DNA of 64,000 bases. It comes from Octopus vulgaris. Taxonomy: Eukaryota. The notes beneath the pieces are model-generated. The model was not told the DNA's origin and did not search any database. It was given only the letters and a program-made list of their open reading frames with translations. The DNA is taken from contig OX597819.1 of NCBI GenBank assembly GCA_951406725.2, forward strand, positions 93,434,001 through 93,498,000, given 5' to 3'. Positions 3,153 to 57,962 of the stretch are shown piece by piece. Position 1 is the stretch's first letter. Every line of letters starts with the position of its first letter. A program made the translations under genes and the position numbers.

Positions 3153-3190
3153 AACAATTAAGTAACACGGATGTGATGTCAAGGTATTAG

Positions 3191-3277
3191 TGCATTACGG
3201 CCGTTTCAAGCGGCTCCATTTAATCGAACAATACAAGCATTATATCAATTTGAAATGCACCGCCATCTTCGGATGCA
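3191..3277 (-). ncRNA. Type I hammerhead ribozyme-like motif (core variant CCGAAGA, U4C)
   Basis: Minus strand: UGCAU-CCGAAGA-U-[GGCGGU...GCCGCU long stem II]-U-GAA-ACGGCCGU-A-AUGCA. Stem I UGCAU/AUGCA, palindromic stem III, GUA cleavage triplet. Confidence 0.75.
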
Positions 3278-3580
3278 TAAGGCCATATAGGTTTTCGACA
3301 TACTGGATACTCCATTATAATTTTTAGTAAACATTTCATCAGAACTAGAGAATGAAAGAATTACATGTTGCTATTATTATGGCAGAATCAACTTTGGGAG
3401 AAAAATACCCCAACTATAATTTGGAGTGGCGGAAGAGAATAACAATGGGGGTCATTAAATGGTAATATAGCTACAATTTTCATCTGTCTCCTTATCACCA
3501 TCCAAAGATCTAATGCAGCCAGTATTCTCCGTCTACTAAGTATATATATATGAGAGAGAACAAAGTGTACGTGCGCCGCT

Positions 3581-3737
3581 AGCCGAAATTGTGAGGATGA
3601 TCCGGTTCTTGACTGAAGATAGAGGGCTTCGAATGACCCGTCCTTTTTGTATCGTCTATCTGGATGTTTTGTTGTTCTTTTTTGTATCACCTAGTTGTCC
3701 AGATGTTTTGCGTTCTTGTCCCATTTTGTATTTTATT
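3581..3737 (+). repeat. Dispersed repeat family P, copy 2
   Basis: Aligns by eye with 1708-1868 and 13535-13696. Confidence 0.8.
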
Positions 3738-4393
3738 TTATGTGTGTGTGTATATATATATATATACGACTGGTTTAAATTGGGAGAGTTCAGTCAAGCG
3801 TGACTCAGCTAAACACCAGTAATACTAAGGAAACAATATAGCTCCGTTTAGTGGTTGCCCAACTTCACTATGTTTACTTTGGGACTGAGACATCAAAATT
3901 GTTGCCATCGATTACTATTTGCAAGTTCCTTTTGTGTATAAAGCAGTTTCACATTTTTATTGTCCCCGAGACAACTGAAATGTTATTGGTTCTGCTGAGA
4001 TTTTGCACAGGAGATTTTTCGAAACTTCAAAGTTTCTATACTTTATTCCATATAATTTTTGAATACTCACATTTTACCTGTAAGAAAATATCAAAAAGTT
4101 CAGATTCTTTTAACACCAGGTGATTGAAGAACCCAGTGCATGCCCATTTGAGATAAGGTGGTGTGGTTTTATTGCCGTTGTTGTTCAACAGATCTGTCAT
4201 CAGAACCATTCTAGATTGCGACTATTCCGTTTTTACGTATATTGTGGTCTTCGGGGTATATGTACATATTAGTTCCAGGATTCGCTAAAATCTAAGTGCA
4301 TCAACAGGTACGATACCATAACACTGAATTCACAATGAGGTAAAACACAACAGATGTAGTAAATTTTAAACCCCATTTGTGTTCTTCTTCATG

Positions 4394-19897: not shown

Positions 19898-20414
19898 TGA
19901 GTGAGTTGCACTAATCTGAGTTTTTCTCAAAAGAATTCTATTTCCTACACCAACCAATGTACAAAGTTATACATCTACCCAATGACTCTAAATATTTACT
20001 GATGAAGTCATAATAATTCTGAAACATAAACCAGGCTTGTCTCCCATACTGGCAGAAATAATTTAAACATTAGTCACTGATTGATATTGCTTTTATTGTT
20101 TATTTTTTCTCACTATATAATTATTACTAATTAGTTTTGTGAAGCTCCCTAAATTAAATAATTGGACATGAATGTAGCTATTATGTGTCATTGGTGTGTA
20201 TTTTCAATAAATGAGTCACAAAATTCTTTTTGATATTCAATGAATACAAAATGATTTTTAAATCCAATAAATATACAAAGGGGAGAAATTCTGAGCAACA
20301 ATGCTGTGTGAATTGTATACTGAATAATTTTTCAATTGTTTGTAATCCATACAATACATAAATGCATACATACATATGTACATACACTCACTGAAATGTA
20401 TGTGTATACATACA

Positions 20415-39548: not shown

Positions 39549-39966
39549 GGCGTAGGAGTGGCTATGTGGTAAGTAGCTTGCTAACCAACCACATGGTTCC
39601 GGGTTCAGTCCCACTGCGTGGCATCTTGGGCAAGTGTCTTCTGCTATAGCCCCGGGCCGACCAATGCCTTGTGAGTGGATTTGGTAGACGGAAACTGAAA
39701 GAAGCCTGTCGTATATATGTATATATATATATAAGTGTGTGTGTATATGTTTGTGTGTCTGTGTTTATCCCCCTAACATTGCTTGACAACCGATGCTGGT
39801 GTGTTTACGTCCCCGTCACTTAGCGGTTCGGCAAAAGAGACCGATAGAATAAGTACTGGGCCTACAAAGAATAAGTCCTGGGGTCGATTTGCTCGACTAA
39901 AGGCGGTGCTCCAGCATAGCCACAGTCAAATGACTGAAACAAGTAAAAGAGAGTAAAAGAAAAGAG
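39549..39966 (+). mobile_element. SINE family A, full length, least diverged copy
   Basis: ggcgtaggagtggctatgtggtaag...ggttccgggttcagtcccactgcgtggc...; CpGs retained; tail (gtaaaaga)n. Confidence 0.93.
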
Positions 39967-40142
39967 AGGTAAGCATGATCCAGGAATCTGAGTGTAGGAA
40001 GTTAGTAAGCTTCAAACATTTAGGCAGCTACTATATGACTAAAAATGTATAATTTACAAGAGAATATATTTATTAACATACACTTCTTCCCATATCAAAA
40101 TTAAAAGGAATTTCAATAGGCATGCATATATATATATATATA

Positions 40143-40376
40143 AGTTCAGTAAAAATTTAGATTCAGATGAATATGGTACTTAACTTGAAGGTACCAGAAT
40201 TTAGTATGGTATTATCTACACAATTTAAAATAAGGTGATTATAATCAAAATAAGCAACAAGGATATCCAGAGGTAATGCAGTACGATCGTTTCATGCAAC
40301 TCTATTTAATTGAACAATGCAAACATTACATCAATTTAAAATGTAGAGCAATCTTCAACTGCACAAAAATATAGAA

Positions 40377-40382
<6 letters not shown>
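40143..40382 (-). mobile_element. Short non-autonomous element between two (TA)n tracts, carrying an HHR (related to 3153-3290)
   Basis: Shares atttaatYgaacaatRcaaRcattaYatcaattt with 3218-3251. Confidence 0.6.
40277..40363 (-). ncRNA. Type I hammerhead ribozyme-like motif (core variant UUGAAGA, C3U)
   Basis: UGCAG-UUGAAGA-U-[UGCUCUA...UAGAGUUGCA long stem II]-U-GAA-ACGAUCGU-A-CUGCA; stem I 5 bp, fully palindromic stem III, GUA site. Confidence 0.8.
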
Positions 40383-40426
<44 letters not shown>

Positions 40427-47619: not shown

Positions 47620-47850
47620 AGTTACTTGGTGACCTTGCTGTAGCTGGTGCCAAGTAAAAAGCAGCCAGTGCACTCTGTAAGGTGGTTGGTGTAAGGAAGG
47701 GCATCCAGTCATAGAAACCATGCCAAATCAGACAATAGGAACTGGTACAGTCTTCTGATTTGCCAGTTCCTGTTAAACTGTCCAACCCATATCAGCATAG
47801 ATAAGGAACATTAAATGATGACAACAGCAACAACGAATGATGATGATGAT
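47620..47850 (+). mobile_element. Short retroposon family D
   Basis: ggttggtgtaaggaagggcatccagtcatagaaacc...ccaacccatatcagcat...(gat)n. Confidence 0.75.
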
Positions 47851-49599
47851 GATATTATTACCATCATATGCTTGATATTCATCCAGAACATGCAAAAAGC
47901 ACAGGGTTGGAAAGGGCATCTAGAAAATTTTTCTTCTCGTGGGGAAAGGGAAATAAAACTGAAGGAAGTGCAAAGTCTTGGAGATGTAACACATAAGAGT
48001 GAGATATGAAGAGGGGTAGATGGAATATGTAGGACCGGGATTGTGATGGTATGAAGCTAGTGCAAAGGTGTTAAAGGCCATTTAAGAAGTAAGAGAAGAA
48101 AGAAATGTCACATGTGTAGGAATACTGGGAAGGATGGGAATTGAACCACAGGCTAGTGGCTCATGGCTTCTTGCAGTTTACTTTCAGTGAAGAATTCAAG
48201 CAGTCCGGCAGTAGCCATGCTTAAATGAAATTTTAAAAAAAATATAAATAAATAAAACAATGTTAAAAGAAAACAGAACAAATCAGGTTTTGATTTTGGC
48301 ATTGTCATAAATGCTAACAACATTGAAACAAGCTTGCTATACTTAAGAAAAAAAGGTTTACTCATTAGCAATTAAAGAGAGTTAACATGCACCTGAAGCT
48401 TAGTTTACCAAATAACTGAACTGTGCACCTATACTGAATGCATATACACCATCTCTCCACTGGAAACTCTCATTACTAAGCAGATGTATGATTATTTTAG
48501 TTCTCATAAATCTATAAGCATAATTTACAATCAATATACTTAACATGAATATTTGTGGCTGAAGAATTATGTGGAAATTTATGTGACTAGGTTTATGTTG
48601 ATTAATTAACACTCAATGAGAATCAGGTAAGGTTATCTACTGAGCAGACAGCTATATATGGTTTCTTCTAAAATCAGAAACTGGTGCATGTATAGTCTAG
48701 CAAACACAGGATTGCAGATGGAGAAAAATCTAGGTCATTTACTGGTGTTACCATTATTGATGAAAATCATCTGTAATATAATGCTTTGCCATTATATACC
48801 TTTTAGAATGTATATGATATTGAATCAGCCTTGATGGAATCTGGATAAAGTATTGAATATGACTGATAAGCCACTTATAAATCAAATCGGCACGATGTTA
48901 TGATGCTTATACTTAGATTAAGGGAAGTTAATGGGATTTACAAAATGTTGTCTGCTGATTGGATTGGCCAAAAAAAATAATCAGTGCAGTGATAAAAGAT
49001 GGATACAATAAACAAACTTTTAATCAAGATTAACACTTTATCCACAGACCCATTCAAGATAGTTAAAAAAAAGGGATTCAAGTTCTAGGTATATCGCTCC
49101 ACATCTGAGAAGCTAATGATGATATCTACAAACAAACAGATGATCCTTTAGACAGAGCTCCAGAAAGAGCAGTCAAATCTTTCTCAAATTACACACAACA
49201 GTTTTACTGCAAGGGCATATTGTTGGAATTATCCAGCAATGGACTTGCAGAGAGATATATAGATGGGGTGGGTATGGCTGAAATATCTTTGATTATAGGT
49301 TTGCATTATCAGAGCTGGTGTGGGGCTAAGGAACAACCACAATTCTAAATCCATAACACAACAGTCACCAATTGATAGTAGTATCCATCAGCCTAACTGC
49401 AGGTAAAAAAAAAACACCAAGAAGATATTCTCATTTTAATTGGTATAAAATTATCAGTCATAATGCAAAATTATATGTAAGGGTGTTATATATTCCTGTT
49501 TGTTACCTAAATTGTAGCTGGAGCATTTAATCCTTCCTAATAGGCTTTTCACATGAAAACAATCCTTTTACTTGCTTTTTTTGAAATTCTATAAGAAAG

Positions 49600-54385: not shown

Positions 54386-55215
54386 TTAATCCATTAACAT
54401 TTAAACTGGCCATATTTGGTCCAAATATTCTACCTGTTTATGTTCAAACTGATCAGATCTGGCCTCTCCCATCTACCCTACAATGTCATTCTAAGAATAA
54501 ACAATCACAACGCCAAAATTTCAAGGCTACAAAGATAATCCCTGATTAATTCAAAATAATATGAATAAGTGAGCACTATATCTTACAAAGTAATAAATAT
54601 CCTTTCTGCTGGAAGCACAAGGCCTCAAATTTGGGGAGTGGGATTAAGTCGAAAACATCGACTCCAGTGTGCAACTGGTACTTAATTTATTGAACCCAAA
54701 AGTATGAAAGGCTAAGTCGACCTTGGCAGAACTTGAACTCAGAACATAGCAAGAGATGAAATACCTATTTCTTAACTACCCACAAGTGTCTAAACACAGA
54801 GAGGACAAACAAGGACAGACAAATGGATTAAGTAAATTATATCGACCCCAGTGCATAACTGGTACTTAATTTATTGAACCCAAAAGTATGAAAGGCAAAG
54901 TCGACCTTGGCAGAACTTGAACTCAGAACATAGCAAGAGATGAAATACCTATTTCTTTACTACCCACAAGTGTCTAAACACAGAGAGGACAAACAAGGAC
55001 AGACAAATGGATTAAGTCGATTATATCGACCCCAGTGCTTAACTGGTACTTATTTAATCGACCCCGAAAGGATGAAAAGCAAAGTCGACCTCGGCGGAAT
55101 TTGAACTCAGAATGTAGCGGCCGATGAAATACCGCTAAGCATTTCACCCAGAGTGCTAACGATTCTGCCAGCTTGCTGCCTTATCTCACAGAGTAATATG
55201 AACACAAAAGAGTTA
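54386..55215 (-). mobile_element. piggyBac-type MITE interrupted by a multimeric SINE B
   Basis: Left end ttaatccattaacatttaaactggcc, right end acaaaagagttaa; tatctYacaRagtaata duplicated on both sides of the SINE. Confidence 0.7.
54597..55180 (-). mobile_element. SINE family B with triplicated ~183-bp internal module
   Basis: Units at ~54642-54826, 54827-55009 and 55010-55180. Confidence 0.85.
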
Positions 55216-57392: not shown

Positions 57393-57962
57393 AGGTGGTG
57401 AGCTGGCAGAATCGTTAGCACACTAGTCAAAATGCTTACTGGCATTTCATCTTTTTATTTTTACATTCTGAGTTCAAATTCCACTGATGTCAACTTCATC
57501 TTTCATCCTTTTGGGGGTCATTAAAATAAGTACCAGTTGAGCACTGGAGTTGATGTAATCAACTTACACTCTCCCACAAAATTTCAGCCCTTGTGCCTAT
57601 TAATAGAAAGCATCACCATCATCATGGCAGAATCATTAGTATTCTGGACAAAATACTTAGCAGTATTTCACCTGTTGCTATTCCACCAAGATCAACTTTG
57701 CCTTTCATTCTTTCAGGGTCAATAAAATAAGCACCAGCTGAACACTGGGTCAATGTAATTGACTCATCCCCAAATTTCTTTATTGCCCACAAGGGGACAA
57801 ACAAGTACAGACAAAATGATTAAGTCGATTACATCGACCCCAGTGCGTAACTGGTACTTAATTTATCAACTCCGAAAGGATGAAAGGCAAAGTCAACCTT
57901 GGCGGAATTTGAACTCAGAACGTAACAGCAAACGAAATACTGCTAAGCATTTTGCCTGGTGT
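57393..57962. mobile_element. Three SINE family B copies: + (57393-57610), + (57625-57778), - (57786-57962)
   Basis: Family B head and central motifs in both orientations. Confidence 0.8.

Follow-up and report, generated by a model that had tools for sequence, protein, structure and literature searches.

The window analysed here is a stretch of 64,000 nucleotides from Octopus vulgaris (contig OX597819.1, positions 93,434,001 to 93,498,000) that is AT-rich and dense in microsatellites. It contains an element of 240 bp (40143-40382) bounded by TA runs of 17 and 34 nt, as an initial annotation made from the letters alone had recognized. The lack of an open reading frame reported there also holds, the longest stop-free frame inside 40143-40382 reaching at most 46 codons. 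The features of the element and of its relative near the start of the window are the following:

3153 to 3543, minus strand: copy of a sister subfamily in the short-end form, matched by 1238, 1411, 83 and 950 contigs in four runs, with 25-28 of 28 bins covered
3191 to 3277, minus strand: hammerhead motif of the sister copy, core CCGAAGA (U4C), found as a descriptor match
40126 to 40142, no strand: TA run of 17 nt at the RNA-sense 3′ (long) end of the element, likely the target DNA
40143 to 40382, minus strand: 5′-truncated, long-tail copy of a high-copy hammerhead repeat, from contig matches in four runs
40143 to 40243, minus strand: optional tail of about 100 nt between two fixed 3′ ends, from loose ends at TA
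40277 to 40363, minus strand: type I hammerhead motif with 5-bp stem I, long stem II, palindromic minimal stem III and GUA cut triplet
40283 to 40290, minus strand: stem III, 8 nt, self-complementary, predicted to pair between two ribozymes
40294 to 40351, minus strand: stem II, 58 nt, with a U·U base, a 3-bp proximal helix, an internal loop and a 17-pair distal hairpin
40358, minus strand: core position 3, U in the 240-bp copy (U3·G8), C in the family ends displayed
40383 to 40416, no strand: TA run of 34 nt, point of 5′ truncation

Left of the element, at about 39790-39965, lies a repeat tail that we take to resemble octopus SINEs. Elsewhere in the window, a 184-bp unit is present in 2.6 tandem copies with 91% matches (54657-55133), and a long imperfect hairpin with a sub-threshold Rfam match to MIR8007 (57691-57895) is likely an inverted repeat pair. 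Since the window holds 102 TA runs of at least five units, with 16 of the 101 intervals between them measuring 150-600 nt, the TA flanks of a single copy are weak evidence; support comes from the other copies of the family.

The hammerhead had been described as UGCAG-UUGAAGA...GAA...CUGCA. This motif is indeed present at 40277-40363, on the minus strand. In that orientation it runs from a stem I arm (40359-40363) through the core UUGAAGA (40352-40358), the 58-nt stem II and GAA to the palindrome ACGAUCGU (40283-40290), with the predicted cut after the A at 40282 and the closing stem I arm at 40277-40281. A descriptor tuned to the motif finds exactly two sites in the window (40277-40363 and 3191-3277) and none in 200 local shuffles, a null that is post hoc because an earlier, stricter rule for stem II had missed the 240-bp copy. 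Under a loose descriptor, which returns 0-2 matches per shuffle, weak hammerhead-like matches appear at 19995-20067 and 47833-47940 (both plus strand), possibly by chance. Rfam gave no hammerhead match on the element at E-values up to 10 and none among the 150 of 287 matches listed for the window, and a covariance model built from the two sequences found no third copy within the window (next best E 0.14).

The sister copy is the only relative of the element within the window (79.5% identity over 83 bp, E 1e-15). It had been placed at 3153-3290 and said to start at TA; the relative is real and adjoins a TA run, but that run marks its RNA-sense 3′ end, 37 nt past stem I as in the short form, and the copy spans about 3153-3543. 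Back-to-back with it lies another TA-bounded element (3553-3745, plus strand), in which GAAA stands upstream of CUGAAGA. Over the two hammerhead copies, 55 of 56 pair cells hold, with two double changes (in stem I and in proximal stem II), and the distal helix of stem II has 97% of its cells paired; control structures slid along the alignment retain 30-46% of their pairs. With only two sequences, the covariation fails to reach significance (120 of 500 shuffles). In the sister copy, GC replaces AU at the centre of the stem III palindrome, a double change that keeps the self-complementarity.

Energy calculations bear on how this ribozyme might act. The palindrome paired with itself yields −10.0 kcal/mol, and the hammerhead fold of the copy yields −15.0 kcal/mol, which becomes −14.7 when stem III is added within the monomer, that is, without any gain in stability. 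The unconstrained fold is a different structure of −20.4 kcal/mol; because it is more stable, ribozyme activity of this copy is not assured. The family ribozyme is predicted to be weak as a monomer and to need a second copy through the palindromic stem III, perhaps together with a protein; the 240-bp copy, being single and carrying U3·G8, is likely near-inactive. Both the stem III energetics and the palindrome fit the dimer model proposed for animal hammerheads of Penelope-like elements (PLEs) in the text available from PMC4209133, and cleavage by hammerhead dimers is treated in a review (PMC6765202). The U·U that replaces G10.1-C11.1 at the base of stem II is a tolerated mismatch according to the portion of PMC3088659 at hand.

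We then turn to the family beyond the window. At 80% identity, the element is matched by 7107, 7285, 768 and 3077 contigs in the four runs, with 30 of 30 bins covered, so that the single-copy case, which the initial annotation had named as its own counter-argument, does not apply. Words of the element occur in 20 of the 24 runs listed, spanning five organisms and 12 studies. Although summed contig depth is not a copy count, we infer thousands of genomic copies. Genome and viral contig collections returned no match to the element, and five metagenome matches were rejected as chance 20-mers in GC-rich contigs.

The ends of these contigs define the boundaries of the family. Of the loose ends, 24 of 630 were listed for the 240-bp query and 24 of 542 for the sister query. 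Among the former, ends abut TA at 40240/40244 in all four runs. Among the same 24 of 630, TA-abutting ends also occur at the 40143 end, before 40152, in 29 and 27 contigs of runs X1 and X2. The 3′ end of the family thus takes two fixed positions, at 33 and at 134 nt beyond stem I, each next to TA, and both ends of the 240-bp copy adjoin TA as well. In the long tail (40143-40240), peak depth relative to the stem II level is 0.62 in X1, 0.71 in X2 and 0.12 in X14, a run from another organism, where the drop may stem either from divergence or from the two ends being used differently. The tail as a whole folds no better than shuffles (z +0.9); a 6-bp hairpin within it (40174-40196, minus strand) reaches z −2.0 when a stretch of 41 nt is selected to surround it and would, as a weak lead from folding, be a candidate signal for positioning the reverse transcriptase. 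A hairpin resembling it was seen by eye in the available sequence of Hydra-2_Amil.

At the opposite side, the family does not stop where the 240-bp copy does. Behind 40380, 25 contigs of X2 and 3 of X3 (again among the 24 of 630 listed ends) continue with family sequence other than TA. Because other copies go on in this way beyond its TA-flanked 5′ end, the 240-bp copy is 5′-truncated, and the 240 bp are a piece and not, as had been proposed, the unit. This 5′ continuation has no match elsewhere in the window. The truncation point cuts through the centre of a 7-bp inverted repeat (40374-40382) that is complete in the family loose ends and is possibly a pause site. Joints between opposite strands make up 3 of 15 joints for the 240-bp query and 5 of the 15 listed out of 37 for the sister query, each seen in one contig per run; such joints would be expected of inverted, 5′-truncated arms, which they fit. 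A hammerhead near the 3′ end, 5′ truncation, an optional tail of about 100 nt and, at the level of single contigs, inverted arms were therefore all found.

A central claim of the initial annotation was that the family carries a C3U-variant ribozyme. U3 is present in the 240-bp copy, but the displayed family ends read the canonical C3 in all four runs: ends clipped at 40340 carry CUGAAGA or CUGAGGA in 79, 123, 10 and 83 contigs. Clipping at this position favours copies that differ from the query. The same subfamily was, however, also captured with the sister query, a sample unselected at core position 3, and the ends behind 3251 again show C3 (26, 27, 2 and 28 contigs). The C3 reading rests on such clipped ends, as the table of differences omits the outermost 40 nt or so at each end, position 40358 included. 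Family ends accordingly contain the CUGANGA / GAAA / UH core with its three stems, and the 240-bp copy contains it with one core change. U3 is most likely a private decay of this single copy. The U4C of the sister copy is likely of the same kind, since loose ends of its subfamily read the canonical core, and private decay is the simplest reading of both changes.

It is unlikely that the family instead works with a U3·G8 core. Apart from the U3 of the 240-bp copy itself, such a core could draw on a natural U3 core without A8 that is mentioned for halophiles in the text seen of PMC7151607. Set against this are the C3 ends in all four runs, including those captured with the sister query, and the variant on record for PLE hammerheads, which in the available part of PMC4209133 is U3-A8; here position 8 is G and the family reads C3. 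C3-G8 is described as a required pair (PMC3088659, PMC11167929), and in the available text of the latter the single changes C3G and G8C, the two that were assayed, each abolish cleavage of a PLE ribozyme. A core change in one repeat copy should thus not be taken for a ribozyme variant until the family has been checked.

The TA flanks raise a different question. Such flanks are typical of Tc1/mariner-type MITEs, and the element could in principle be a remnant of a MITE or another DNA transposon in which the hammerhead-like motif arose by chance. We consider this highly improbable, and the DNA-transposon origin as largely refuted: the terminal inverted repeats that the initial annotation had named as counter-evidence were not found, the 3′ ends are fixed while the family extends 5′, and the hammerhead core is conserved and accompanied by compensatory changes.

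A close likeness exists to Penelope-like elements of the Hydra clade. Elements such as Penelope-5_HM and Hydra-1_Ajap share with the octopus repeat TA targets and a type I hammerhead near the 3′ end, and in the material available on this clade we further find a stem III that is nearly palindromic (AC..GU), inverted truncated arms, and 3′ ends that follow the ribozyme at a distance of about 30-40 or 100-150 nt. Craig et al. (2021, PMC8557442) list 27 Hydra families, 26 of them with a preference for TA, and also describe inverted 5′-truncated arms for PLEs. In the 25 Hydra consensuses with a ribozyme row in Files S1/S2 of that paper, ends lie 25-45 nt past stem I in 10, 46-90 nt in 3, 91-150 nt in 10 and further in 2; the match of the two octopus ends to this distribution is suggestive, consensus ends depending on curation. 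Counted by eye, 14 of these 25 rows have U·U at the base of stem II. The octopus ribozyme nevertheless stands apart from them in the length of stem II, 58 nt against 10-26 nt in the Hydra rows; by eye, only two Selaginella PLE-X rows of the same supplement, marked as deviant, come near 50 nt. It also differs from the ribozyme of Hydra-1_Obim given there, and a search of the supplement for six family motifs gave no match.

Other known systems resemble the repeat in part. The minimal PLE hammerheads described by Cervera and de la Peña (2014, PMC4209133) share its short stem I, palindromic stem III and predicted dimer, but, as far as the text at hand goes, they differ in having U3-A8 in place of U3·G8, G10.1-C11.1 in place of U·U, and a stem II of 7-8 bp that is far shorter. 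Metazoan non-LTR retrozymes are likewise short, AT-rich and non-coding (240 and 391 nt were seen here), carry a type I hammerhead and are related to PLEs. They are defined by tandem units and circular RNA in the accessible text of Cervera and de la Peña (2020, PMC7229834); two ribozymes and self-cleavage also belong to the traits of this class, and the octopus element is known here from its sequence. In Poseidon PAc of Anolis (Frangieh et al. 2024, PMC11167929), the target is likewise AT-rich and two internal start sites follow the ribozyme, but this element belongs to another clade, and its tail measures 30-40 nt, the length usually described, compared with about 100 nt here. For O. vulgaris, active PLE families are reported in a repeat paper in whose main text neither hammerhead nor ribozyme appears (PMC13282606), and we found no description of the family in the literature on octopus hammerheads, cephalopod retrozymes or long-stem-II retrotransposon hammerheads.

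We conclude, with a probability of roughly 0.8, that the 240-bp element is a 5′-truncated copy of a high-copy hammerhead repeat, most likely put into a TA microsatellite by a Hydra-type PLE reverse transcriptase-endonuclease, with U3 likely a later mutation. Of the microsatellite-targeting ribozyme retroelement first proposed, a TA-associated, hammerhead-bearing and Penelope-related repeat is thus supported, shorn of the C3U variant and of the 240-bp unit. The element appears largely ordinary, a known kind of genomic debris whose unusual feature is the long, conserved stem II.

How such a copy could arise is suggested by a purified Penelope-like protein that, in the accessible text of PMC11167929, cuts AT-rich DNA, uses two internal starts that define the tail and takes uncut RNA as its main substrate. 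By analogy with this Poseidon protein, a PLE reverse transcriptase-endonuclease would nick AT-rich DNA or a TA run, and reverse transcription would be primed within the RNA, at either of two fixed positions that lie about 39 and 140 nt beyond the predicted cut. Copying would then proceed back across the uncut or re-ligated ribozyme and stop early; for the 240-bp copy, priming would have taken place at the far site and synthesis would have ended about 19 nt beyond stem I. The RNA template would have been uncut or re-ligated because reverse transcription must have passed over the cut site in all copies that retain an intact ribozyme, and circular RNA is not required, since uncut RNA is the main substrate in vitro in that study.

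What kind of RNA supplied the template is a separate matter. A Pfam scan of the 100 longest of 270 window segments revealed no reverse transcriptase or GIY-YIG domain, and scanning the window for reverse transcriptase and endonuclease motifs gave one chance-like match among eight patterns. Over the up to 30 nt by which the family was followed beyond the window copies, no open reading frame with reverse transcriptase (DKT, RWK) plus GIY-YIG was linked to it, and neither window locus shows a tandem arrangement. Non-autonomy of the family is plausible.

The parent could have been a short non-coding unit, either a non-LTR retrozyme or a non-autonomous PLE derivative, that stands in tandem at some locus, is processed into monomers or circles and relies on the enzyme of a PLE; we give this close to even odds. 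The sister copy has at least 266 multicopy nt upstream of its ribozyme, with 2, 11 and 7 stops in the three frames and no Hydra C-terminal motif, while in five of six Hydra consensuses, read by eye, the stop codon lies only about 45-170 nt from the ribozyme; in Hydra-1_Ajap, however, the conserved C-terminal motif is placed by eye about 280 nt upstream. Retrozymes derived from PLE ends, including solo monomers, are described in the portion seen of Li, Clavereau and Pollet (2026, bioRxiv 10.64898/2026.07.22.740005). Against a short tandem unit, no head-to-tail joint occurs in any of 15 joints for the 240-bp query or among the 15 of 37 listed for the sister query, although such a joint would escape notice if the unit exceeded the stretch in length. 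The idea that the 5′ part of the sister copy is a permuted copy of the long tail was rejected, as the two share no homology (1407 of 2000 shuffles score as high).

Alternatively, the repeat could be what 5′ truncation has left of an autonomous Hydra-like Penelope element whose 3′ UTR is long, namely the pLTR and tail at its 3′ end, a reading to which we assign somewhat less than even odds. The core architecture and both end distances match the autonomous Hydra consensuses available, and the text at hand from PMC4209133 regards the majority of single PLE hammerheads as truncated copies. Contig coverage of the sister copy drops about 4-5 fold over 200 nt toward the 5′ end, as truncation would give, but summed depth also tracks local divergence and is not a copy count. 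No open reading frame was reached, and the difference from the Hydra-1_Obim ribozyme speaks against this parent. Taken together, a short non-coding, retrozyme-like derivative appears slightly more likely as the parent RNA than an autonomous element.

Both Hydra 3′ end positions, which are separate among consensuses, occur here in one family. This points to the use, by Hydra-type enzymes, of two start sites separated by about 100 nt. For the contact with a protein that PLE hammerheads reportedly require, the long conserved stem II offers a concrete candidate. Between the two subfamilies, 35 of 41 positions are identical in its distal hairpin, compared with 22 of 39 in the tail and 11 of 21 upstream; recombination between subfamilies could explain this likeness of stem II next to divergent tails as well as selection does. 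On a speculative reading that we regard as doubtful, a non-autonomous family common to several related species would conserve the 58-nt stem II beyond what pairing requires as a docking site for a Penelope-type reverse transcriptase, so that cleavage would be gated by protein and the RNA admitted to copying from two starts 100 nt apart. If this were true, ribozymes with such long stems would evade Rfam and standard descriptors, and the class would be under-counted in animals.
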